Shown: positions 1-30,448 of the stretch, piece after piece
Numbering within the stretch: position 1 is the first letter of the stretch
Layout: every line of letters starts with the position of its first letter
From: Candidatus Kaiserbacteria bacterium
GTDB taxonomy: Bacteria > Patescibacteriota > Minisyncoccia > Phycocordibacterales > UBA2100
Assembly: GCA_017134395.1 (NCBI GenBank)
Contig: CP070993.1
Span: 153,231-187,655 of the forward strand
Length of the DNA stretch: 34,425 nt
Reading direction: 5' to 3'
Program-made: the position numbers and the translations under genes
Notes under the pieces: model-generated
The model's database searches: none
Told to the model about the DNA's origin: nothing
What the model saw: only the letters and a program-made list of their open reading frames with translations

Positions 1-1088
1 AAACAAATAAAACTAAATCTGCAACGCTTGCATATTTACGAGGAGAAAAAGAAATAGCAATACCAGAAACTCGTAGAGAAACAAACAAAGGGGTTCTGCT
101 TATCCGTGGTGGAAAGAAATTTAGCATTCAGAACCTAAGTGTCGATGTGCCACTTGGACGATTCGTAGCAATTACCGGTGTCTCAGGCTCAGGCAAATCT
201 ACCTTTATGTACGAAATTCTTCATGAAAACCTTAAGGCGCGATTTGATAAAAGATACAGAAGCGCAAAGGTGTATAACTGCGCACGTTTTTCGGGTACGG
301 AATATCTCACACGCTCTATTCTTATTGATCAATCGCCGATAGGGCGAACACCACGTTCTAATCCAGCTACCTATACTGGAGCGTTTACGCATATTCGCGA
401 TCTCTTTGCAGAAACAACAGAGGCACGTGCGCGCGGATGGAAGCCAGGGCGTTTTAGTTTTAATGTAAAGGGAGGGCGCTGTGAGGCGTGTCAGGGAAAC
501 GGTATGGTTGCCGTTGAGATGCATTTCCTTCCAACTGTTCACGTAACCTGTGATGTCTGTTTAGGAAAACGCTTTATGAAAGAGACACTCGAGGTTGAAT
601 ACAAAGGGAAGAACATCAATCAAGTGCTCAATATGACAATTGAAGATGCGATAGATTTTTTCCAAGATATTCCTGGCATCTACGATCGTTTGAAAACACT
701 TGGTGAAGTAGGTCTTGGATATCTTACATTAGGGCAAAGCGCTACAACGCTTTCAGGGGGTGAGGCGCAGCGTGTAAAGATTGCCTCAGAACTATATCGC
801 CCTGGAATGACCAAGACTATGTACTTGCTTGATGAGCCAACTGTCGGTTTGCATTACGATGATGTAGCAAAACTTATTGAAATTCTTCAAGAATTAGTAC
901 GACGTGGAAATAGTGTCGTACTTATTGAACACAATATGGATGTTATCAAATCTGCTGACTACATCATAGATTTTGGACCTGAAGGGGGAGATGAAGGTGG
1001 GAAGTTAGTAGCGAAAGGAACACCTGAAGAAGTTGCAAAGGTAAAGGGGTCACACACTGCTACTTATTTGAAGAAAGTGTTGAAATAG
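1..1088 (+). CDS. uvrA: Excinuclease ABC subunit A (UvrA), C-terminal part; 5' end lies outside the window
   Basis: Frame 3 is open from base 3 to the TAG at 1086-1088, so the M at 147 is internal. Translation has Walker A GVSGSGKST, zinc-finger CEACQGNG...CDVCLGKR, ABC signature LSGGEAQR and Walker B LLDEPT. Confidence 0.95.
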   Translation, partial: TNKTKSATLAYLRGEKEIAIPETRRETNKGVLLIRGGKKFSIQNLSVDVPLGRFVAITGVSGSGKSTFMYEILHENLKARFDKRYRSAKVYNCARFSGTEYLTRSILIDQSPIGRTPRSNPATYTGAFTHIRDLFAETTEARARGWKPGRFSFNVKGGRCEACQGNGMVAVEMHFLPTVHVTCDVCLGKRFMKETLEVEYKGKNINQVLNMTIEDAIDFFQDIPGIYDRLKTLGEVGLGYLTLGQSATTLSGGEAQRVKIASELYRPGMTKTMYLLDEPTVGLHYDDVAKLIEILQELVRRGNSVVLIEHNMDVIKSADYIIDFGPEGGDEGGKLVAKGTPEEVAKVKGSHTATYLKKVLK

Positions 1089-1119
1089 AAAAAGGCAGCG
1101 TTACTCAGCTGCCTTTTTT
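1089..1119. terminator. Bidirectional intrinsic terminator between uvrA and the minus-strand small ORF
   Basis: Stem GGCAGC (1094-1099) / GCTGCC (1108-1113). It has an A-run upstream and T-run 1114-1119 downstream, so a U-tract forms on either strand. Confidence 0.7.
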
Positions 1120-1334
1120 GGTACGCTTTCTTTTTCCAGATCTACATAAGCTCGAAAGCCAACTTGGAATAGGGCGTCCCATTTCTTGTCATTGTCGCCG
1201 GTTGGCCGAAACCCATAAAAGCGGCAAAAAACCTCAAACCAATAGTGTGGGCAGTAACGGTTTGTGTATAGGCAAGGCTTATGGCGACAACTTCCTCTTG
1301 CCTGAAGAAGAGCTTCTCTGATTGGCATTGCCAT
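1101..1334 (-). CDS. Hypothetical small Cys/aromatic-rich protein (77 aa)
   Basis: On the minus strand an ATG is preceded by SD-like AAGAGG (1345-1340) and a TAGAAT -10 hexamer (1363-1358). The same hexamer is used upstream of murB and tRNA-Ala. The stop lies in the terminator loop. I recognise no family. Confidence 0.35.
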   Translation of the reverse strand: MAMPIREALLQARGSCRHKPCLYTNRYCPHYWFEVFCRFYGFRPTGDNDKKWDALFQVGFRAYVDLEKESVPKKAAE

Positions 1335-1448
1335 CAGTACCTCTTTCTGTTGAGAACATTCTAAAATCTAACTATACTGCAAATTGTAGAGTAATACAAT
1401 GGCCAAAAAGCGCTTGCTGAAAGATTATTTGAAAGGCATATTAGTACA

Positions 1449-2675
1449 ATGCAAAAGAAAGATATCAAAAAAATAAAACTTCCGGACATGCCGGGAATCT
1501 ATATATTTCGTAATGCGAAACGTCAGATTTTGTATGTTGGTAAAGCGACGTCGCTACGAAGCAGAGTTCGTAGCTATTTTAATACTGATATACAAAGTAG
1601 CCGAGGGCCTCTTATTGTAAAAATGCTCGAAGAAGCCAAATCGGTTGACTGGGAGGAAACAGATTCCGTTCTAGAGGCTCTTATTCTGGAAGCAAACCTC
1701 ATTAAAAAGCATCAGCCTGATTACAATACACGCGACAAAGACAATAAGAGTTTTAACTACCTTGTTATCACAAAAGAAAAGTTTCCACGCGTACTTGTTG
1801 TTCGCGGTAGGGACTTATTTACAACATGGAAAGATAAGGATATTAAACATCTGTTTGGGCCTTTTCCTCATGGCGGTGCGTTGAAAGAAGGTCTTAAAAT
1901 AGTCCGTAAAATATTCCCGTTTAGAGACAAATGTTTACCTGCAGAAGATACCAATTCAAAACCGTGTTTTAATAAACAAATAGGATTATGCCCTGGTGTG
2001 TGTTCTGGAGACATCAGTAAAAGCGAGTACTCTAAACTCATTGCAAACATTAAATTGTTGTTTGAAGGCAAGAAAACACAACTTCTCAAAAATCTCACTC
2101 GAGATATGAAAAAAGCTGCCAAAGAAGAACGCTTTGAAGAAGCGGGAGGCTTAAAACATAAAATATTTGCTCTTACGCATATCCAAGAGACTGCATTACT
2201 TGGAAGTGACTATAAAGTATCTTCAGGCGATGGCTCTGAAAGAATAGAGGCGTACGACGTTGCTCACATTAGCGAGACTGCTCGAGTAGGCGTAATGGTT
2301 GTAGTACAGGAAGGAGTGGCTAAGAAATCGCAGTACCGCAAATTCAATATAAAGACAGAGAAAATGGGAGACATAGCTGCACTCGAAGAAATACTTCAAC
2401 GAAGATTTATGCATGTAGAGTGGGAATTGCCAACACTTATTGTTGTCGATGGTGGAGTTGCACAAAAAAACGCCGCACTAAGAGTACAGGCTGAATTTGG
2501 CTACAAAATACCAATTGTTAATGTTGTTAAGAACGCGAAACACAAAGCCGACAAGGTTGTAGGGAACGCTGTTGTTATTGAAAAGTGGGAGAAAGATATT
2601 TTACTCGCGAATAATGAATCTCATCGTTTTGCAATTTCGTTCCACCGTGCAAAACGAAAAAAGGCACTCATATAA
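1449..2675 (+). CDS. uvrC: Excinuclease ABC subunit C (UvrC), short 408-aa form
   Basis: N-terminal GIY-YIG motif (PGIYIFRN...ILYVGKATSLRSRVRSYF), a UVR-like helix (EERFEEAGGLKHKIFAL) and a central endonuclease region. The ORF ends without a C-terminal (HhH)2 segment. Confidence 0.85.
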   Translation: MQKKDIKKIKLPDMPGIYIFRNAKRQILYVGKATSLRSRVRSYFNTDIQSSRGPLIVKMLEEAKSVDWEETDSVLEALILEANLIKKHQPDYNTRDKDNKSFNYLVITKEKFPRVLVVRGRDLFTTWKDKDIKHLFGPFPHGGALKEGLKIVRKIFPFRDKCLPAEDTNSKPCFNKQIGLCPGVCSGDISKSEYSKLIANIKLLFEGKKTQLLKNLTRDMKKAAKEERFEEAGGLKHKIFALTHIQETALLGSDYKVSSGDGSERIEAYDVAHISETARVGVMVVVQEGVAKKSQYRKFNIKTEKMGDIAALEEILQRRFMHVEWELPTLIVVDGGVAQKNAALRVQAEFGYKIPIVNVVKNAKHKADKVVGNAVVIEKWEKDILLANNESHRFAISFHRAKRKKALI

Positions 2676-3737: not shown

Positions 3738-4730
3738 ATGTCACGAATTAATGTTGGAGTTTTACGTGGTGGACCTTCAAGCGAGTATGAAGTATCTCTC
3801 GCAAGTGGGAACTCAGTACTCCAGCATCTCTCTGAAGAACGATACAATGCAAAGGATATTTTAATATCTAAAACTGGCCAATGGCATTCAAGAGGACTTC
3901 CTGTTAGTCCTGAACGCGCACTTCGCGATATTGATGTTGCATTTATCGCACTACATGGCGAGTATGGTGAAGACGGGGAAATACAAAAGATTCTTGATGC
4001 TCACAACATTCCTTTTACTGGCTCTGGCGTTTTTGGTTCAGCAATTGCAATGGATAAAGGGAGCACACGGAAACACGTAGGAAACATTGATGGAATTAAA
4101 ATGCCGGGACACGTTGTTCTTCATAAAGAAGAGGTAACCGGAACACTTGCTGAAGCTGCCCAAAAAGTATTTTCTCAATTTGGCCCACTTTACATCGTGA
4201 AGCCACTTCGTGGAGGCTCATCAGTAGGTATTGCAACAGCTGACTCTGTTTCGTCACTTGTAGGCGCACTGAAAGATGTCTTTGCAGTTACAGACGCAGT
4301 TATTGTCGAACAATTTATAAAAGGAAGAGAGGGAACGTGTGGTGTTATTGATAACTTCCGAGAAGAATCAGTCTATTGTTTGCCGCCTGTTGAGATTATA
4401 GTACCAAACAACAAAGGCGTATTTGATTACGAAGCCAAGTATGATGGGTTAACCGAAGAAGTATGTCCTGCCAATTTTTCAGGAGTTGAAAAGGAGCTTA
4501 TGCAAAATGCAGCGCGGCAGGTGCACAAAACGCTCGGACTGAATCACTATTCGCGCTCAGATTTTATTGTCGCACCTTCGGGCATATACTTCTTGGAAGT
4601 AAACACGCTACCTGGACTCACGCCTTCGTCGTTGCTTCCAAAGTCGCTTGATGCTGTTGGAGTTGAGTTCCAAGATTTTCTTGATCATTTATTAACACTT
4701 TCACTTAAAAATAATGGCAGCACTCGATAA
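3738..4730 (+). CDS. ddl: D-alanine--D-alanine ligase (Ddl)
   Basis: Motifs INVGVLRGGPSSEYEVSL, HGEYGEDGEIQKILD, AMDKGSTRKH and LEVNTLPGLT. The ATG at 3738 matches the usual Ddl N-terminus better than the track's TTG at 3708. Confidence 0.9.
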   Translation: MSRINVGVLRGGPSSEYEVSLASGNSVLQHLSEERYNAKDILISKTGQWHSRGLPVSPERALRDIDVAFIALHGEYGEDGEIQKILDAHNIPFTGSGVFGSAIAMDKGSTRKHVGNIDGIKMPGHVVLHKEEVTGTLAEAAQKVFSQFGPLYIVKPLRGGSSVGIATADSVSSLVGALKDVFAVTDAVIVEQFIKGREGTCGVIDNFREESVYCLPPVEIIVPNNKGVFDYEAKYDGLTEEVCPANFSGVEKELMQNAARQVHKTLGLNHYSRSDFIVAPSGIYFLEVNTLPGLTPSSLLPKSLDAVGVEFQDFLDHLLTLSLKNNGSTR

Positions 4731-4998
4731 AGACGCATTACGTTCATTCTTAATGAGTGATTCAGTATGGGAACTAGACGCACAAGATAACACTTTAGTG
4801 CGTACTTTTATGTTTCGTACGTATAAAGAAGGGGTGGCCTTTGCCAACAAGGTTACTGAAATTGCAGAAGAGCATAATCACCATCCCCAAATTATTATAG
4901 ATTGGGGGAGCGTCACAGTAAAAACAACAACACATGATGATGGAAATACTGTAACCGATAAAGATATCAAGATAGCACAAGCTATAGATGCGCTATAA
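4714..4998 (+). CDS. Pterin-4-alpha-carbinolamine dehydratase (PCD/DCoH-like)
   Basis: 94 aa with the family pattern F.F....AF.F...V...AE..NHHP.....W..V....TTH. It overlaps the ddl 3' end by 17 nt. Confidence 0.75.
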   Translation: MAALDKDALRSFLMSDSVWELDAQDNTLVRTFMFRTYKEGVAFANKVTEIAEEHNHHPQIIIDWGSVTVKTTTHDDGNTVTDKDIKIAQAIDAL

Positions 4999-5377: not shown

Positions 5378-7243
5378 ATGGAAGTGGGACCGTGGAAATC
5401 AGAGTCAGTCGAAAGCCCAGAACTTTTTCGTGGAACACTTGGATTTGACTTCGTGTTTACACGCGAAGATGGAAAGCTGAAGTGTTATTGTATCGAATTC
5501 AATGGGAGCAATAGTGGAGTACAAGGAGTGCGGCGGCTGCCTGCAGATGCTCTCGATGCAACACACAAAATTTTGGCATCAGTACGAAGCTCAGCAAGTG
5601 AAAAAACGCGAGAAGCAGTACGAAAGTACAACGATTTCATTAGAAGAAATCCGGACCAGTCTTTTTCAGTGGTGGTAGCAGGCCATCTTCGTGCACAGCT
5701 CGATGATGCACCATTGCATACGCATGAATATTCAAATCCGGAATTTATCCAAGATATAACACTGAATAAACGGCGCCAGGAAGAATATATACCACGCGCT
5801 AACCGACCAAACTCGTGGAAACCGGGCGATTCCACGAAATCTAAGAGCGGGTTTTGGATCTATAAAGAGGGTGGTTCGTCGCGTGGACAGGGTATCTACA
5901 TTCTTTCCGATACTGAACTAGCAGATATGCTTAAAGAGGCACCGAAGATAGACGAATCGACTCTTGGTAATGATGTTATACAAGAATTGTTGCCGGTCAC
6001 CGGTGCAGAAAATGCAACAGAGGCACACAAAAATCGTGCAGCTTCCATGCGCCTACTAATGGACTTCCGCTATTTAGAAGGCGGGACGATACAGTCGGAC
6101 TTTTCGACCAGCTATCAGCGAATTGCACCTCATGACAAAAATAGTACACAGACACCCGGTGGTGAGGATTTTCAAAAAGAGGATACTTTGGTGGTTAATT
6201 ATTCAACAGGTGCGCTTTCGGCTGCGGCTTCGCCAATGGAAATAAAGCTCGCAAAAGAAGTCGCAGAAAAAGTTATTCACAATCTAGCTAACACGTACAT
6301 AAAGAAGATGATTAATGAAGAGAAAGTACATCGACTTATGTTGGAAGTACCAACGGGCCGCTCACGCGAAGTAAGTGCAGTCAATAAGGAAGTGAATGAT
6401 GCACTTATTACATTGTACACGCGCTTTGAGGATACGTATGGTAGAGATTATCTACCATTTCATAATAGCTACCACACTGCGCGTGTTATTGCACGAGTCG
6501 ATAAGATATGGCGCAGTATTGACGAAGGTGAGCACGATTTAAAAGAGTACCTTCTTCTACGGCTATGTGCAGCATTTCATGACAGTGTTCAAAAATGGAA
6601 GTCATTCGAGATTGAAGAAGACTTCAATGGGCAGAAGTTTACGAAAATCGTTAGGAAACGTTTTACCGGACAAAATGAGAAAGAGAGTGCAGGTGAGCTT
6701 GTCGCATGTATGCGCCAGATTAATCAAGAAGTTAACTACGATTTTTTCTCTCGCGAAGATGAGCGTGTTGCACAGGAGGCCATTCAGGCAACGATACCTG
6801 CATTTGATATTGCACGTGGTACCGTGGGACAACCCAAACTTGAAAAACACTCATCGCGTGTTACACGACTTCTAGCACTTGCCGATCTCGGAGCTGCGGG
6901 ACTGGAGTCGGAAAAATTTGTATATGAAGGCAATAGAATTTTCCAAGAAGAAAACATTGATATCTATGAAGCCTTGCAAAGCCCTGAAAAGATCGATGAT
7001 GCGCATAAAGAATATTTTAGACATAGAATGTTCGAGTGGTCGAAGTCACAACCAAGATTCGCCAAAGGGCGACAACGACTCTTAGAGAAGGAGTTGGTTA
7101 GACTGCCACAGCGCGAAAAGAAGGAAATTAGATATCTGTTTTGCGGTTTTGAAGAAAGTATTGCATATGCAAAAGAGGCAGTTGAGAGACGACGTACTAT
7201 GAGTTTCGAGGAGCTTGCAAAAGATATGGGGTACGAGTTCTAG
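5378..7243 (+). CDS. ATP-grasp (tubulin-tyrosine-ligase-like) / HD-domain phosphohydrolase fusion protein
   Basis: 621 aa. ATP-grasp/TTL-type motifs FWIYKEGGSSRGQGIYIL, VIQELLP, MDFRYL and LVVNYSTGA, plus GFDFVF...YCIEFNGSNSG at the N-terminus. The C-terminal half has the H...HD pattern (FHNSYHTARVIA ... LCAAFHDSVQ). Confidence 0.6.
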   Translation: MEVGPWKSESVESPELFRGTLGFDFVFTREDGKLKCYCIEFNGSNSGVQGVRRLPADALDATHKILASVRSSASEKTREAVRKYNDFIRRNPDQSFSVVVAGHLRAQLDDAPLHTHEYSNPEFIQDITLNKRRQEEYIPRANRPNSWKPGDSTKSKSGFWIYKEGGSSRGQGIYILSDTELADMLKEAPKIDESTLGNDVIQELLPVTGAENATEAHKNRAASMRLLMDFRYLEGGTIQSDFSTSYQRIAPHDKNSTQTPGGEDFQKEDTLVVNYSTGALSAAASPMEIKLAKEVAEKVIHNLANTYIKKMINEEKVHRLMLEVPTGRSREVSAVNKEVNDALITLYTRFEDTYGRDYLPFHNSYHTARVIARVDKIWRSIDEGEHDLKEYLLLRLCAAFHDSVQKWKSFEIEEDFNGQKFTKIVRKRFTGQNEKESAGELVACMRQINQEVNYDFFSREDERVAQEAIQATIPAFDIARGTVGQPKLEKHSSRVTRLLALADLGAAGLESEKFVYEGNRIFQEENIDIYEALQSPEKIDDAHKEYFRHRMFEWSKSQPRFAKGRQRLLEKELVRLPQREKKEIRYLFCGFEESIAYAKEAVERRRTMSFEELAKDMGYEF

Positions 7244-9429: not shown

Positions 9430-10140
9430 ATGTTTGGTTCTGAAGTTACCCTCGTAGTCGCATTTATCGCAGGAATAGTGTCTTTTCTATCTCCGTGCGT
9501 CTTGCCCATTATTCCAGGCTTTTTAGCGTATCTTACTGGTACTTCAGCCCAAGAAAAGCCAAAACGAAGCCGAGTCGTCTTACACAGCGCACTGTTTGTA
9601 TTGGGGTTCTCGCTCGTTTTTGCTCTTCTCGGAGTCTTACTAAACACTGTACTTGAACGCTCTGCATACGATACTCAAATTTGGCTGTCGCGTATTGGTG
9701 GAGTCATTATAATCTTCTTCGGACTCTTCTTGATGAAGCTCATACGTCTCCCATTTCTCGAGAGAGCTCACACAATTAATGTTGTCGGTAAATTTAAATC
9801 GAAGTATCTTACCTCAATGTTATTTGGTGCAGCGTTTGCTGCCGGATGGACGCCTTGTGTAAGTGCTGCATTAGGTGCGATTCTTGGACTTGCAGCAAGT
9901 AACCCTGGTGTAGCGTTTTGGCTTCTTATGTCTTACTCATTTGGTTTGGGAGTTCCGTTTCTTGTTATTGGGTTCTTTGCAGCGGATGCCGGAAGAGTTA
10001 TACAACGTTACGCCAGCTCACTTACGTATGTAAACATGGTGTTTGGTGCACTGCTTATCGTTTTGGGAGTTCTTATATTCACGCAAGATTTGGTTCTCTT
10101 ATCTAACTTTGAACTTCTTAATAAAATCCTCTTGAAATAA
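9430..10140 (+). CDS. ccdA: CcdA/DsbD-family thiol:disulfide electron transporter
   Basis: 236 aa, polytopic. Conserved LSPCVLPIIPGFLAYL and a second Cys motif AGWTPCV. Confidence 0.85.
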   Translation: MFGSEVTLVVAFIAGIVSFLSPCVLPIIPGFLAYLTGTSAQEKPKRSRVVLHSALFVLGFSLVFALLGVLLNTVLERSAYDTQIWLSRIGGVIIIFFGLFLMKLIRLPFLERAHTINVVGKFKSKYLTSMLFGAAFAAGWTPCVSAALGAILGLAASNPGVAFWLLMSYSFGLGVPFLVIGFFAADAGRVIQRYASSLTYVNMVFGALLIVLGVLIFTQDLVLLSNFELLNKILLK

Positions 10141-10144
10141 CACC

Positions 10145-11263
10145 ATGAACGCAAAGCAGCTTATAACGCTTGCTCTAGTTGCTGCCCTTATTGTTGGGGC
10201 AATTGCATACCTTCAAAGTAAGAAGATACCAGTAGATGTTGCAGCGCTCGCAGCTGAAGCAGAAATTGTCATTCCAGAGCTGACGACATCAGAAAAGGCT
10301 GAAAAATATGACCGTGCACGTGAAATAACACAACCTGCCGGCTTTATTAATACTGAAGCCTTTAATCTTGCTGACGTTGTTGGAAAGAAAGTAATATTGC
10401 TAGATATCTGGACATACAGTTGTATTAACTGCCAGCGTACCTTGCCGTACATAACCGCATGGGATGATAAGTACAAAGATGAGGGTCTGCTCATTGTGGG
10501 AATACACTCTCCTGAATTTGAGTTTGAAAAAGACATCGAAAATGTACAGACTGCAGTTGAAAAGTTCGGCATTAACTACCCAGTTGTACTTGATAACGAC
10601 TTTGGAACATGGCACGCATACCGAAATAGTTACTGGCCACGTAAATATCTTATCGATATCGATGGATTTGTCGTCTACGACCACATTGGTGAAGGTGCCT
10701 ACGATGAAACAGAGGCAAAAATAAAAGAACTGCTTGCAGAACGCGCGCAAAAACTTGGCGAAGTAGTTGATTTAACAGGGCGTGTAGACACTATTACCGT
10801 GCCTGAGGCAATTGCTGATACTGTTCCGCGAAGTCCAGAAGTATACTTTGGTGCGTGGCGAAACAGCACATTTGGTAACGGAAGCCCTGGAATGCTTGGT
10901 GGATACGAACTAGAGCGTCCTGCCACATTTGTTCGAGATATTTTTTATCTCACTGGAGCATGGAACATCTACCAGCAATATGCGGAGAATGCAAAGAAAG
11001 ACGCCCGTATAATCTACAAGTACAGCGGCGACAAGGTCTTTATGGTTGCCAGCTCAAAATCTGGTGCAACAATACGACTTCTACAAGATGGTGAACCAAT
11101 TGGCGCCGCTGCCGGTGCTGATATTGATGAAAACGGGCGAGTAGAGGTGAAAGAAGAACAACTCTATAAACTTGTCGATAATCCAGATGGTGCGGCAGAG
11201 CACACACTTGAAATAATCATCGAAGATCCTGGTTTGGAGATATTTACCTTTACTTTCGGTTAA
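10145..11263 (+). CDS. Extracytoplasmic thioredoxin-like (TlpA/ResA, DipZ C-terminal-type) protein
   Basis: N-terminal TM anchor and a redoxin domain with CINC active site (DIWTYSCINCQRTLPYI). The C-terminal extension resembles the DipZ C-terminal domain. Confidence 0.75.
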   Translation: MNAKQLITLALVAALIVGAIAYLQSKKIPVDVAALAAEAEIVIPELTTSEKAEKYDRAREITQPAGFINTEAFNLADVVGKKVILLDIWTYSCINCQRTLPYITAWDDKYKDEGLLIVGIHSPEFEFEKDIENVQTAVEKFGINYPVVLDNDFGTWHAYRNSYWPRKYLIDIDGFVVYDHIGEGAYDETEAKIKELLAERAQKLGEVVDLTGRVDTITVPEAIADTVPRSPEVYFGAWRNSTFGNGSPGMLGGYELERPATFVRDIFYLTGAWNIYQQYAENAKKDARIIYKYSGDKVFMVASSKSGATIRLLQDGEPIGAAAGADIDENGRVEVKEEQLYKLVDNPDGAAEHTLEIIIEDPGLEIFTFTFG

Positions 11264-11333
11264 TTCCACAGTTACGAACTAGCGGTGCATACATCTGCTA
11301 TAATGAAAGTGTTATTATTTAATATATAATCGC

Positions 11334-11831
11334 ATGACTCATTCAAACATTGAGCACTACGCACCACTTGTTGGGCGTGTGTTGCTCGTACTTTTATTTA
11401 TCGTGAGCGCCTTTGGCATCCTCACAAACTTCTCAGGTACTGCAGGTTTTTATGCATCACTAGGTATTCCTGTTGCTGCAGCAGCAGTAGTTGTAGTGCT
11501 TTTGATTAAAATTCTCGGTAGCCTCATGGTGGCAACAGGAATACATGCACGTACTGGTGCATGGGCACTTATTATCTTCACAATTGCTGCTACACTCATG
11601 GCTCACATTGGTGAAGGTCAAATGGTTTCAGCACTTAAGAACCTCTCAATAATTGGTGGTTTACTGCTCGTTACAGTATATGGAGCTGGACCTAAATCAC
11701 TTGCACACTTGTGCCCGTGTCCAAAATGTAAGGTTGCAACTCCAGTCGCAGCAGGTGGCGTATGTAACTGTGGATCGTGTGACGCATGTCGCGCAGCACA
11801 AAGTGCACACAACGACGGAGGATCTCAATAA
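11334..11831 (+). CDS. DoxX-family membrane protein with a Cys-rich C-terminal tail
   Basis: Four TM helices typical of DoxX. The tail HLCPCPKCKVATPVAAGGVCNCGSCDACRAA carries 7 Cys. TGCTATAAT lies at 11296-11304 upstream. Confidence 0.65.
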   Translation: MTHSNIEHYAPLVGRVLLVLLFIVSAFGILTNFSGTAGFYASLGIPVAAAAVVVVLLIKILGSLMVATGIHARTGAWALIIFTIAATLMAHIGEGQMVSALKNLSIIGGLLLVTVYGAGPKSLAHLCPCPKCKVATPVAAGGVCNCGSCDACRAAQSAHNDGGSQ

Positions 11832-27641: not shown

Positions 27642-27863
27642 ATGTTTAAAAATTTTCTCGTAAAAAAGTTGATGAAATCACAACTTAAAAATATGCCTAA
27701 GGATCAGGCTGACATGATTGGTGCAATGATTGAAAAAAATCCAGAGCTCTTTATGAAAATTGCAAAAGAAGCACAACAACTTGTAAAAGGTGGGAAGGAT
27801 CAGATGGCAGCTATGATGGAGGTCAGTAAAAAGTACCAAAAGGAGCTCCAGCAGTTGATGTAA
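27642..27863 (+). CDS. Hypothetical small helical Lys/Met-rich protein
   Basis: 73-aa ORF with AT-rich, neighbour-like codon usage. No recognisable family. Confidence 0.45.
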   Translation: MFKNFLVKKLMKSQLKNMPKDQADMIGAMIEKNPELFMKIAKEAQQLVKGGKDQMAAMMEVSKKYQKELQQLM

Positions 27864-27907: not shown

Positions 27908-27935
27908 TTGACAATTTTTTCCCATTTGATATCTT
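27908..27935 (+). promoter_or_regulatory. Near-consensus promoter driving the candidate sRNA
   Basis: TTGACA (27908-27913), 16-nt spacer, TGaTATCTT (TG 27927-27928, TATCTT 27930-27935). Confidence 0.6.
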
Positions 27936-27941
27936 ATCGGA

Positions 27942-28124
27942 ACGGTAGTCAGCTTGCTGATTGCCGTACTGGTGACTACTTCAAGTCTTCGGACTCGAAA
28001 TGGCCACCATGTAGGTCGACTCTTCGGAGTTGATCTACATGGTGTCCGTTTCAATCTTTTGACCTTCGGGGATAGGGAAAGAAATGAACACCAATGAAAA
28101 ATGTCTACTTCGGTAGGCGTTTTT
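27942..28124 (+). ncRNA. Candidate novel structured sRNA (~185 nt), class unknown
   Basis: No ORF. Five consecutive hairpins: 27942-27967 (CUUG loop), 27980-27999, 28002-28047 (about 20 bp), 28055-28082 and 28103-28118. The last four close on UUCG loops and the final one is followed by GTTTTT. Several G-U pairs work only on the + strand. Confidence 0.55.
28097..28124 (+). terminator. Intrinsic terminator ending the candidate sRNA
   Basis: GTCTAC ttcg GTAGGC followed by GTTTTT, with an A-run upstream. Confidence 0.7.
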
Positions 28125-28145
28125 CATATCTGAGTAAATAATTAC

Positions 28146-28171: not shown

Positions 28172-28258
28172 CTATTGCAACATAGGTATATTTATGCAAC
28201 TATCAAGCAAGTTTGTACTTTTTGTTCAACTAGTCTAGTCATGAAAGGGAGACTAATA

Positions 28259-29191
28259 ATGGCTACGGTTGCAAAACTTGAATCGACTGAAGAAGACTTC
28301 AGTCCAAATACTATTTACCCTGTGACGCTGAACCAAATTCTTCCATTTCCGGACCAGCCTCGGCAACATTTTGACGAACAAGGCATCAAGGATTTGGCAG
28401 AAAGTATTCAGGAAAAAGGCCAGCAAACGCCCGTCGTTCTCTGCAAGAACCCCAGTTATCCTGAACATTTTATGCTCGTCGGGGGTGAAAGACGCTTTCG
28501 GGCGTTCACTCTCATAAGTCAGCTTACTGGGAAAAATCCTGAAGTCCTTGCGGTGTTTAAGCCGTTCGAAAATGGGGAAAATCATTTCCGGATTGCGTTG
28601 CTTGATAATCACCACAGAAAAGGTCTTTGCGAACTTGATGAAGCACATGCATTCGCGAAACTTCATCATAAATTTGGCGACACAATTGCACGTATCGCCA
28701 AAGACATGGGAAAGTCAGTTTCCCATGTTAACCAATACATTCTGGTTGCCGGCCTCCCTGAGGAGGTAAAGGAACTGATGAATCCAAATCTTCCCAGAAT
28801 CGAAAGGCTCAACATAAGTGCGGCAATAAAGATTGCACAAGGGGTTCCTAAGAGCAATCCCGATCTGCGTATTGAACTTGCCAGGGAATCTGTGGAAAGA
28901 AGTCTGCCGGTAGTTGAGGTTAGTGCATTCGTCGAAAGGAGAACTGAGCAAGCCGGATACCGCATTGGTGGAAGCAGAAGAAAACCTTCTGATGATTATA
29001 AGGCGCTTCTGGGGTTTTTCGGGAGAACAAAAACCCAGCTTAAGCGTCACTGTGCGCATCCAAATATCGAAGCGCTATTCCTAAAACGAGACGATCCTGC
29101 AGCTGATAAAAAAGCAGCTCTGGAGAGTATCGATTCCGTTGTGCGACAACTGGAATCACTTCGTCGCAAAATTGCAGGCGATGAAACGTAG
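28259..29191 (+). CDS. ParB/Srx-family protein (ParB N-terminal domain plus HTH), orphan
   Basis: ParB box motifs LPFPDQPRQHFDEQGIKDLAESIQEKGQQTPVV and VGGERRFRAF, then HTH DTIARIAKDMGKSVSHVNQYILVAGLPEEVKELM. The ATG at 28259 has GGGAG 7 nt upstream. The track start at 28160 lies inside the terminator palindrome. Confidence 0.8.
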   Translation: MATVAKLESTEEDFSPNTIYPVTLNQILPFPDQPRQHFDEQGIKDLAESIQEKGQQTPVVLCKNPSYPEHFMLVGGERRFRAFTLISQLTGKNPEVLAVFKPFENGENHFRIALLDNHHRKGLCELDEAHAFAKLHHKFGDTIARIAKDMGKSVSHVNQYILVAGLPEEVKELMNPNLPRIERLNISAAIKIAQGVPKSNPDLRIELARESVERSLPVVEVSAFVERRTEQAGYRIGGSRRKPSDDYKALLGFFGRTKTQLKRHCAHPNIEALFLKRDDPAADKKAALESIDSVVRQLESLRRKIAGDET

Positions 29192-29211
29192 ACAACCAAT
29201 GAGACAACAAA

Positions 29212-29249
29212 ACTGGGCAAGACGTTACGACGTCTTGCCCAGTCTTTTT
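29212..29249 (+). terminator. Strong intrinsic terminator after the ParB-like gene
   Basis: ACTGGGCAAGACGT tacg ACGTCTTGCCCAGT (14-bp stem) followed by CTTTTT. Confidence 0.85.
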
Positions 29250-29250
29250 A

Positions 29251-29279
29251 TTGACAATAAACGAAACCTGCGGTTAACT
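29251..29279 (+). promoter_or_regulatory. Promoter of the CtrA-like gene
   Basis: TTGACA (29251-29256), 17-nt spacer, TTAACT (29274-29279). Confidence 0.5.
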
Positions 29280-29323
29280 CACGTATAGTATTGTTCCTAA
29301 CCAACCAACAAAGGAGAGGTTCT

Positions 29324-30070
29324 ATGAAAATTCTCTGTGTAGGTGTTGATGAGACTACGCTAGAATTCTTGAGAGCACATGGATTCGCGATCGAGGAGGG
29401 ATCGGACATTGAAACTGCTGAAGATCTCGATCCTTACTTGCTGGGTCTTGAATCTGCTGCTGGCCTTGTAGACGTTGAGGCAAGTGGTCTTGGAATTTTC
29501 TTTCCACGATCAGTTCGCAATGCAAGAAACACCACGCCACTTGTCGGAATCGCATCGGTCAACAAAGACGAAGCATGGTCAGAAACATGTGCCGAATTTT
29601 TGGAAATCGGGGGAGACTATTTGGTCAAACGGCCGGTAAGTCCGCGAGAAGTAATTGCTGCCCTAAGTTCGAGCATACGCCGATCAAACAACGGCTTGCA
29701 TGACATCGTCTTCTGCGAACTGCAGGATCCTAAATTGGGAGATCTTACTCTCAAGATCAATACAACGACGAGCAGAGTGTATGTCGATGATAAAGAGATC
29801 CTTCTTACTGGCAAAGAAAGAAGCTGTATTCGTACGCTTGCTTTGGCCGTAGACAGAGTGCTTTCAAAAGAGCAGATTCTCAACAGCATGTACGCCCTCG
29901 AAATTGATGAGCCGGAATTAAAAATTATCGACGTCTTCATGTGCAAGATTCGTAAAAAACTGGCAGAAGTCGATCCACGTGCCAGCATTTTTATTCAGAC
30001 AATTTGGGGTCGAGGCTACTCTTTGGTAAGCCTGCTTGCCCTAAACAACTCTGAACAAAAGGCTGTGTGA
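29324..30070 (+). CDS. OmpR-family response regulator with a CtrA-type DNA-binding domain
   Basis: The ATG at 29324 is preceded by AAAGGAGAGG. The receiver has D9/E10, D50 and K102 at the expected spacing. The output domain reads LLTGKE...DEPELKIIDVFMCKIRKKL...QTIWGRGYSL, closely matching the CtrA recognition-helix region as I recall it. Confidence 0.8.
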   Translation: MKILCVGVDETTLEFLRAHGFAIEEGSDIETAEDLDPYLLGLESAAGLVDVEASGLGIFFPRSVRNARNTTPLVGIASVNKDEAWSETCAEFLEIGGDYLVKRPVSPREVIAALSSSIRRSNNGLHDIVFCELQDPKLGDLTLKINTTTSRVYVDDKEILLTGKERSCIRTLALAVDRVLSKEQILNSMYALEIDEPELKIIDVFMCKIRKKLAEVDPRASIFIQTIWGRGYSLVSLLALNNSEQKAV

Positions 30071-30071
30071 C

Positions 30072-30112
30072 AAAATGGACCCGGAGCATCGAAATGCACC
30101 GGGTCCTTTTTT
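30072..30112. terminator. Bidirectional terminator shared by the convergent CtrA-like and SciP-like genes
   Basis: GGACCCGG ... CCGGGTCC with inner GCAT/ATGC pairing. TTTTTT lies downstream and an A-run upstream. Confidence 0.8.
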
Positions 30113-30353
30113 AATGACGACGCGTCACGCGAAGCCCTTTCACACCGTCTTTTTGTAAGGTAGTTCGCCACTCGATAAGCGTGTTCGCGTCGACATCGTA
30201 CTTTTTTTCTAGTCTCTCAAAAGAAAGGATGCCTAGATCGACAGCTCTCACAATCATCGCCTTACGTCCAGGTGTCCAGCGAGTTATGGTCGGAGGAAGA
30301 TCTTCTTCCCTCAAAATGGAATTGCCCTCAGCATCATACAGAGTTCCACTCAC
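30111..30353 (-). CDS. SciP/DUF1153-like small HTH protein
   Basis: 80 aa. GTG start preceded by AAAGGAG. The pattern DLPPTITRWTPGRKAMIVRAVDLGILSFERLEKKY...IEW....QKDGVKGLRVTRR matches the DUF1153/SciP consensus from memory. Confidence 0.7.
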   Translation of the reverse strand: MSGTLYDAEGNSILREEDLPPTITRWTPGRKAMIVRAVDLGILSFERLEKKYDVDANTLIEWRTTLQKDGVKGLRVTRRH

Positions 30354-30448
30354 AGTTATCTCCTTTACCTGTTCAAGTGCCTAATTTGAGTATATGATAG
30401 GCCATATATTTTGTCCATATTACCCATTGCTCAAAATAGAAATAATAT

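Follow-up and report, generated by a model that had tools for sequence, protein, structure and literature searches.

CtrA is the master regulator of the cell cycle, motility and gene-transfer agents in Alphaproteobacteria, and the question raised by the locus described here is what a gene resembling ctrA is doing on the chromosome of a member of the Patescibacteria. The gene lies within 34,425 nt of a Candidatus Kaiserbacteria contig (CP070993.1, positions 153,231 to 187,655; this whole stretch is called the window below), between a gene for a ParB-like protein and a gene for a protein resembling SciP, a small helix-turn-helix (HTH) protein that in Alphaproteobacteria binds to CtrA and blocks the promoters that CtrA activates. 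The original prediction, made from the sequence alone, was a CtrA-type response regulator with a functional-looking receiver in an otherwise Patescibacteria-like genome. The explanation that we find best, and hold with moderate confidence, is that the gene encodes a CtrA-derived winged-helix factor whose receiver fold no longer works as a phospho-switch, and that it belongs to a parB-like/ctrA-like/sciP-like cassette gained or lost in the leader of ychF.

The regulator gene is genuine, with an ATG start eight bases past a Shine-Dalgarno-like AAAGGAGAGG. The strings first noticed in its product (LLTGKE, DEPELKIIDVFMCKIRKKL and QTIWGRGYSL) are found there exactly, and the Caulobacter strings that had been set beside them agree with genuine alphaproteobacterial CtrAs; HLTGKE...DEPELKIIDVFICKLRKKL...ETVWGRGYVL is read in the CtrA genes of named genomes, for example that of Asticcacaulis (Caulobacteraceae). 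The columns of the CtrA winged-helix signature (LTGKE, DEPELKIIDVFxCKLRKKL, ETVWGRGY) are invariant between true CtrAs and the family to which the window protein belongs, and the signature is absent from E. coli OmpR, PhoB, CreB and ArcA. When the window protein and its 10 nearest relatives are aligned with 9 database CtrA homologues that have canonical receivers, several of them named CtrA at source, 30 columns are invariant, nearly all of them in the output domain (including LTGKE, KIIDVF-CK-R-K and T-WG-GY). CtrA and SciP have been described as alphaproteobacterial regulators, with D51 phosphorylation, an acidic pocket and the T168/T170 determinants (PMC9437464, PMC6847485). Ser181 of the window protein aligns with Caulobacter T170, a determinant of the CtrA DNA-binding domain (PMC6847485), and the change is a conservative one.

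Against the NCBI curated response-regulator models, the window protein matches CtrA first (104.4 bits, E=7e-30), with OmpR (64.3 bits), RpaB (63.8 bits) and PhoB (58 bits) as runners-up, which leaves CtrA a margin of 40 bits over the 37 other models. The match to the NCBIfam CtrA model (NF045991) spans residues 55-234 only and falls short of the 350-bit equivalog cutoff, and a control, the Asticcacaulis CtrA, scores 409 bits on the same model; its identity as a CtrA orthologue is thereby not supported. Pfam finds Trans_reg_C only. The protein shares with CtrA the two-domain OmpR/PhoB architecture and a DNA-binding domain with LTGKE, DEPELKIIDVFxCKxRKKL and TxWGRGY, but it is just 33-42% identical to true CtrAs and is not alphaproteobacterial. 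The resemblance exceeds chance, as the E-value shows, and a KIIDVF[VI]C scan of 185,579 species genomes gave almost only Alphaproteobacteria among the 80 loci listed, which then served as our ctrA reference set.

A profile search of 1.84 billion representative proteins recovered ~70-80 representatives of the family at 50% identity, which makes it both large and diverse. In a neighbour-joining tree of 71 family members, 41 CtrAs and the four E. coli regulators named above, family and CtrA together split from the E. coli outgroups in 200/200 bootstraps. The family is monophyletic in 166/200 bootstraps and CtrA in 97/200, so that the family is either sister to CtrA or nested within it, and its DNA-binding domain lies at a distance of 1.35 from CtrA as against 2.26 from the outgroups. 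The best-scoring model, the tree and this distance together show an output domain of the CtrA type, and not of the ordinary OmpR/PhoB type, as had been proposed, in a protein that is not a CtrA orthologue. Two long proteins recovered with the family, P0325 (1041 aa) and P0351 (1182 aa), begin at the N-terminus with a degenerate receiver and a CtrA-type winged helix, and carry further output-domain profile matches in the same chain (4 and 5 stretches, respectively).

It could be argued that the gene is an ordinary lineage-specific OmpR/PhoB regulator that looks like CtrA only superficially or by convergence. The ten nearest relatives would suit such a regulator, as they are just 37-48% identical and none comes from Alphaproteobacteria. 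The condition that had been named as refuting the original prediction, a placement among ordinary regulators of the same lineage, gets a mixed answer: the nearest relatives are regulators on similar small-genome contigs, and their whole family is itself of the CtrA type and groups with CtrA against the E. coli outgroups. The 40-bit margin, the 30 invariant columns, the unanimous bootstraps and the physical association with SciP homologues and, at four loci, with a canonical-type CtrA (see below) leave this explanation largely refuted, and we consider it very improbable.

In the N-terminal half of the protein, the residues that had been read as an acidic pocket (D9, E10), a phospho-acceptor (D50) and a lysine (K102) are all present, but their assignment holds only in part. 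Aligned with CtrA, the acidic pair falls on V8/D9, the acceptor on D50, the Ser/Thr on A77 and the lysine on R103; the conserved CtrA lysine, directly before a proline, aligns with R103, and K102 is off by one position. The window protein therefore does not present the canonical receiver set of acidic pair, Asp51, Ser/Thr and Lys, which all of the aligned alphaproteobacterial CtrAs retain (DD-D-S/T-K). Across 88 non-identical family members, in CtrA numbering, the first acidic residue (D8, canonically Asp) is L/V/I in 78/88 and Asp in 1/88; the second (D9, also Asp) remains Asp in 58/88; the acceptor (D51, Asp) is Asp in 53/88, Asn in 25/88 and another residue in 10/88; position 79 (Ser/Thr) keeps Ser/Thr in 56/88; and Lys 101 is Lys in 9/88. 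The loop after the acceptor is ~5 residues shorter in the family than in true CtrAs. The Pfam Response_reg domain (PF00072) has no match in the window protein and none is recorded for its 10 nearest relatives, and every next-tier CtrA has one. With neither a domain match nor a family that has kept its catalytic residues, the view that the receiver looks functional is not supported.

The receiver-like domain is nevertheless under constraint and not decaying; its conservation equals that of the DNA-binding half (0.50 vs 0.52). The alpha4-beta5-alpha5 region carries a strongly conserved family signature, R..FLE.GGDDL...P..REL.A, and the AlphaFold2 model of the window protein (pLDDT 89.7) shows a (beta-alpha)5 domain followed by a winged helix. 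Its top Foldseek matches are full-length OmpR/PhoB regulators, including HP1043 (2hqr), GlnR (8hih) and RitR (5u8k). The receiver distance to CtrA (2.03) is about equal to that to the outgroups (2.20). Judging from its residues, this domain probably does not act as a phospho-switch and is probably better described as a pseudo-receiver that would serve dimerisation or partner binding.

There are precedents for such a protein. HP1043/HsrA of Helicobacter, ChxR of Chlamydia, the actinobacterial GlnR and the streptococcal RitR are atypical, phosphorylation-independent OmpR/PhoB regulators. The window family likewise keeps the receiver fold, has catalytic residues that are not conserved among orthologues, and has no adjacent cognate kinase. 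In contrast to these regulators, its output domain belongs to another subfamily, so that sequence kinship is at the superfamily level only, and it is linked to ParB-like and SciP-like genes, as they are not. There may also be a second lineage with an atypical receiver, as a separate group of CtrA-like proteins (P0029, P0049, P0341 and P0344) has Ser at the acceptor (…ST-TPDR…); P0029 at least carries the JGI name 'CtrA'.

The alternative that the window protein is a working, phosphorylatable CtrA orthologue in a CtrA-type phosphorelay, with CckA/ChpT-like partners elsewhere in the genome, draws on the presence of D9 and D50, the basic residue at the lysine position, the adjacent SciP-like gene and the canonical-type CtrA genes of related Patescibacteria loci. 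It has to contend with a score of 104 bits against an equivalog cutoff of 350, the missing Response_reg match, V8 in place of a metal-binding Asp, A77 in place of Ser/Thr, and a family in which the acceptor is not Asp in 35/88 members and the lysine is missing in 79/88. No kinase-like or ChpT-like ORF (open reading frame) was seen in the 34-kb window, as had been noted at the outset, and no kinase and no CckA, ChpT or DivK partner lies beside the related modules. We regard this alternative as quite unlikely.

Every gene flanking that of the regulator had been described as a housekeeping gene; both immediate neighbours are instead part of the inserted cassette, and one of them, overlooked at first, is a homologue of SciP/DUF1153. 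The upstream gene encodes a member of the ParB/Srx superfamily, with Pfam matches to ParB_N (48 bits) and HTH_ParB (28 bits), a match to TIGR00180 (105 bits), an intact GGERRFRA motif (GGERR-RA is invariant in 8 sequences compared) and a C-terminal RKPSDDYK...LYxHRDDE. Pfam finds no ParB_C dimerisation domain in it, no locus has an adjacent parA, and no conserved palindrome was found, all of which sets the protein apart from the ParB of a chromosomal ParABS partition system. Locus L001 carries a separate canonical ParB with ParB_C, to which the module ParB-like proteins are ~31% identical; among themselves they are 32-43% identical. This subfamily of ParB is previously undescribed. A 100-aa ORF downstream in L003, which had been considered as a SciP-like candidate, is not SciP-like and is probably spurious.

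The linkage of the two genes was surveyed in 37 family loci, gathered from exact look-ups and from a metagenome scan with a receiver-only alignment. Among the 29 loci having enough upstream sequence, 27 carry a ParB-like gene immediately before that of the regulator. Here the family differs from CtrA itself, as there is no ParB-like gene within 8 kb of any of the 80 alphaproteobacterial ctrA loci listed. Although the promoter-like element between the two genes failed a strict consensus scan, its layout is repeated in L001, L003, L091 and L092 (a TTGACA-like hexamer, 16-17 nt, then TTAACT/TTTACT/TAGATT), and a terminator hairpin follows the ParB-like gene at the same place in these four loci. 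KorB (with KorA, of plasmid RK2), Noc and Shigella VirB are CTP-dependent DNA-binding proteins of the ParB family with a part in gene regulation. The module gene is comparable in having a ParB N-domain, GGERRxRA and an HTH and in its strict linkage to a small set of transcription-factor genes, and it differs in having no detected ParB_C, a family-specific C-terminal region, no ParA and no identified parS. A PADLOC search gave no meaningful defence-system match.

The downstream gene, convergent with that of the regulator, encodes a protein that scores 59.2 bits on Pfam DUF1153 (PF06627; cutoff 23.5) and 56.7 bits on the NCBIfam model 'CtrA inhibitor SciP' (NF051866), below its cutoff of 100; the copy in L190 reaches 79.9 bits, also below 100. 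Its alignment with genuine SciPs extends over the full protein (G..IT..DLPP..T.RW...RK..VV.AV..GLIS...Y.L/M..EF..W...G..GL+.T), at 32-41% identity. Genuine sciP genes adjoin ctrA in Rhodobacterales, where they lie directly upstream, and in other Alphaproteobacteria, so that the regulator gene sits beside a SciP homologue much as ctrA does in Rhodobacterales. The window copy is convergent rather than upstream of its regulator, and only about half of the modules have one (a convergent downstream SciP-like gene is present in 17/33 family loci). In L161 the SciP-like match (6336-6565, minus strand) is split between two reading frames, so that the gene is either a pseudogene with a frameshift or was misread in sequencing. 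The hairpin between the convergent genes, with T-runs on both sides, is probably a bidirectional terminator. Each of the three genes has signals of its own, and the coordinates of these features are given in Table 1.

Table 1. Positions of the cassette and its signals in the window, and of canonical-type CtrA genes at related loci.
Feature	Position	Strand	Remarks
Three-gene insertion	28237..30425	.	DNA alignments with L085, L087, L088; ~2.2 kb, borders ±~15 nt
ParB-like gene	28259..29191	+	310 aa from ATG behind AAAGGGAGA; ParB/Srx N-domain, HTH, family-specific C-terminal region
Terminator hairpin after ParB-like gene	29212..29243	+	
Promoter-like element of CtrA-like gene	29251..29279	+	TTGACA, 17 nt, TTAACT; read from sequence
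CtrA-like regulator gene	29324..30070	+	248 aa; degenerate receiver-fold domain ~1-125, CtrA-type winged helix ~140-235
Hairpin with T-runs on both sides	30072..30111	.	Inverted repeat, 18-nt arms, 89% complementary; between convergent genes
SciP-like gene (DUF1153)	30111..30353	-	80 aa, GTG start, convergent with CtrA-like gene; Pfam/NCBIfam
Promoter-like site of SciP-like gene	30389..30417	-	TGGACA, 17 nt, TATACT; 10/12 matches
L170 canonical-type CtrA	4097-4804	-	402.6 bits; 86% identical to a Hyphomicrobiales CtrA
L092 canonical-type CtrA	2-562	-	386.5 bits; Asn at acceptor position (D51N)
L190 canonical-type CtrA	611-1273	-	357 bits; in sciP-ctrA tandem as in Rhodobacterales
L168 canonical-type CtrA	1112-1774	-	326 bits; just under cutoff 350

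The host is a member of the Patescibacteria with a Paceibacteria-type chromosome, as had been surmised, and both the YchF relatives and the gene order of three related loci bear this out. The relatives of the window YchF are 80-91% identical, the closest named ones being from Candidatus Pacebacteria (84%), Paceibacterota and Kaiserbacteria, and the YchF proteins of L085, L087 and L088 are 91, 80 and 81% identical to it, respectively. The window is collinear with these three loci through genes for ATP synthase, RNHCP, TruB, an AcrB-like and an HlyD-like protein, a small ORF, YchF, DUF5671 and LeuRS. None of the three cassette genes is found in L085, L087 or L088 between the small ORF and ychF, where the order is HlyD, small ORF, noncoding RNA (ncRNA), YchF. 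The cassette sits within the ychF leader, with the ancestral promoter region of ychF on one side and its ribosome-binding site on the other, and downstream of a conserved RNA-like element and its terminator. We searched its borders for flanking direct or inverted repeats, an integrase and a tRNA and found none. The third-position GC content (GC3) of the three cassette genes, 0.41-0.44, is the highest in the window (mean ~0.35), which is a weak foreign signal.

Because the gene order of the relatives resumes on both sides, the 28.24-30.42 kb segment was either inserted here or lost from the relatives, and is not the chimeric join against which the original prediction had cautioned. An assembly chimera or contamination, that is, alphaproteobacterial DNA in a Patescibacteria contig, could account for the absence of the cassette from three close relatives and for its slightly higher GC3. 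It would, however, need two precise joins, since the relatives' order picks up again on both flanks, and the nearest homologues are not alphaproteobacterial. The cassette also occurs in >30 independent contigs (including contigs of 742,741 bp and 402 kb), a contig of 786,872 bp is on record for a sister protein (P0003), and an analogous island in L170 has Patescibacteria flanks on both sides; a chimera is thus highly improbable. The sizes of the module-bearing contigs, which include pieces of 0.40-0.74 Mb and the 687,746-bp contig of the window itself, fit small genomes.

The island in L170 is one of four places (L170, L092, L190 and L168) where a canonical-type second CtrA stands beside the family module. 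These canonical-type copies share 63-86% identity with alphaproteobacterial CtrAs and 54-73% with one another, and three of them pass the equivalog cutoff. L170 is from Patescibacteria; its FtsA is 78% identical to that of Candidatus Adlerbacteria and the other named relatives are Parcubacteria and Paceibacterota. The placement in this phylum has been shown directly for two family loci, the window and L170. The L170 island (ctrA, parB-like, ctrA-like) lies between the S1 and pth genes, which are adjacent to each other in L194 and L195, and therefore both flanks follow Patescibacteria gene order. Closer relatives of L170 (L191/L192) carry at the S1-pth site an unrelated 110-aa stand-alone OmpR-type winged-helix gene (6546-6878, minus strand); the L191 gene was considered as a CtrA remnant and is not one. 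Regulator genes may insert preferentially at the S1-pth site, as at a hot spot.

That the module comes from a mobile element, or serves one, is plausible, and the cassette could be a regulatory or maintenance module of a Patescibacteria phage or plasmid, of which the window copy is a stranded or domesticated remnant. Under this alternative, the ParB-like protein would serve partition of the element or silencing, and the CtrA-like/SciP-like pair would form a developmental switch. The cassette is absent from close relatives, its chromosomal site changes from lineage to lineage, and its GC3 is slightly raised. In L093, the pair is part of a run of small co-directional genes that includes those for an endonuclease V of phage type, an HNH endonuclease (201 bits) and a sigma-like protein of phage. 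CtrA genes, either full-length or DNA-binding-domain-only, are likewise found on IMG/VR contigs (L094-L157), and in two of these (L107, ~10001-11534, and L114, ~10001-11283) a DNA-binding-domain-only CtrA is accompanied by a SciP-like gene ~1 kb downstream; CtrA and SciP modules thus also travel on mobile DNA. In PHROGs, the ParB-like protein matches phage ParB-like families and the regulator matches phrog_731. Against this, none of the 64 viral-contig matches has a ParB-like gene or a close family member, and the viral-contig CtrA genes are at most 35% identical at full length. The window cassette and its immediate surroundings showed no integrase or repeats, no ParA, no gene for replication and no other gene of a phage, and most loci are plainly chromosomal. 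We look on a phage or plasmid module as possible and, on the present evidence, rather unlikely. It concerns the role of the cassette and is compatible with the molecular description of the regulator as a CtrA-derived factor with a pseudo-receiver.

If the regulator is such a factor, the three proteins may work as follows. The CtrA-like protein would bind DNA via its recognition helix, KIIDVFxCKxRKK, and a TTAA-type site is the default prediction for its target because this helix is invariant with that of CtrA. It would probably be a constitutive dimer, held together through the conserved alpha4-beta5-alpha5 face, and its activity would be set by its own level and by the SciP-like protein as an antagonist, rather than by a CckA-ChpT phosphorelay. 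The ParB-like protein, which keeps the ParB CTP-binding motif and the HTH, would probably act as its DNA-bound partner.

Several points weigh against this explanation. D9 and D50 are still present in the window protein, with a basic residue (R103) in place of the lysine, and this particular member might therefore be phosphorylated. The structure model was built on an alignment that includes true CtrAs, and the tree was computed from distances with four outgroups. Beyond the 34-kb window, the ~688-kb contig could hold a kinase, a phosphotransferase or a canonical CtrA. The window has no TTAA-N7-TTAA box where 1.5 would be expected, although the regulon may lie outside the sequence covered, and a de novo search for dyads and 7-mers shared upstream of the parB-like, ctrA-like and sciP-like genes returned only ribosome-binding-site, promoter and terminator signals. 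With neither CtrA boxes nor a common operator, the DNA target is therefore unsupported.

Wider searches for binding sites agree with the earlier remark that no CtrA box is present locally. The window holds two TTAACCAT half-sites as against 1.5 expected, both inside genes and not above chance. Exact TTAA-N7-TTAA is not enriched across 23 loci (2 boxes vs 3.5 expected), and a search near the module genes of 7 loci with ≤1 mismatch gave nothing above chance; no exact box lies near any module. In contrast to CtrA, no CtrA boxes and no phosphorelay genes were seen beside the modules in the sequences searched. Type IV pili and DNA uptake are traits under CtrA control in some Alphaproteobacteria, and at some loci the module is within a few kb of type IV pilin genes, PilMNO-like genes or dprA (L091 4356-4931, L174 9059-10099, L177 1463-3638 and L001 11560-12414). 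This proximity could be a coincidence, because such genes are common in Patescibacteria.

Some further features of the window deserve mention. The RNA-like element upstream of the cassette (window 27908-28126, plus strand; L085 9706-9875, L087 9803-9969, L088 9754-9921) measures ~170-190 nt, lies between the small ORF and ychF, and has its own promoter-like site (TTGACA, 16 nt, TATCTT) and terminator. Among four sequences, 14 of 59 predicted pairs still pair after two-sided changes, and there is no Rfam match at the gathering score. The window copy, with the cassette just downstream, contains a ~17-nt loop insertion. The small ORF itself (27642-27863, plus strand) encodes a Lys/Met/Gln-rich protein of 73 aa that is kept in all three relatives (74-81 aa) and has no Pfam or PHROG match. 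A 621-aa ORF (5378-7243, plus strand) has no Pfam match at E<=0.001.

In our full-text literature search, no paper was found that treats CtrA together with Patescibacteria, Parcubacteria or the candidate phyla radiation; here an atypical regulator derived from CtrA stands in a three-gene module, and in a phylum, that are both new for it. The CtrA-SciP pair is treated as an alphaproteobacterial signature. The window and >30 further loci show a diverse CtrA-type family in Patescibacteria, whose chromosomes also contain genes that score above the CtrA equivalog cutoff. This family appears to have shed the chemistry of phosphorylation, yet it keeps the SciP-like putative antagonist and is locked to a ParB subfamily. 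These observations bear on the horizontal spread and rewiring of a master regulator, on the conversion of a receiver into a pseudo-receiver, and on regulation in ultra-small, host-dependent bacteria with few known regulators, and they offer a compact three-protein system that is open to study in vitro.

A more far-reaching proposal, which we advance tentatively and as a possibility more than an expectation, is that Patescibacteria took up an alphaproteobacterial CtrA-SciP circuit and remodelled it into a widespread, phosphorylation-independent cassette with a fixed and dedicated ParB-family partner. In some lineages a canonical-type CtrA still accompanies the cassette, and one copy that passes the cutoff is already D51N. 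Under this proposal, the ParB-like and CtrA-like proteins would represent a new kind of DNA-clamp/transcription-factor pair, comparable to KorB-KorA, and the cassette might govern CtrA-type traits such as pili and DNA uptake, or interactions with the host.

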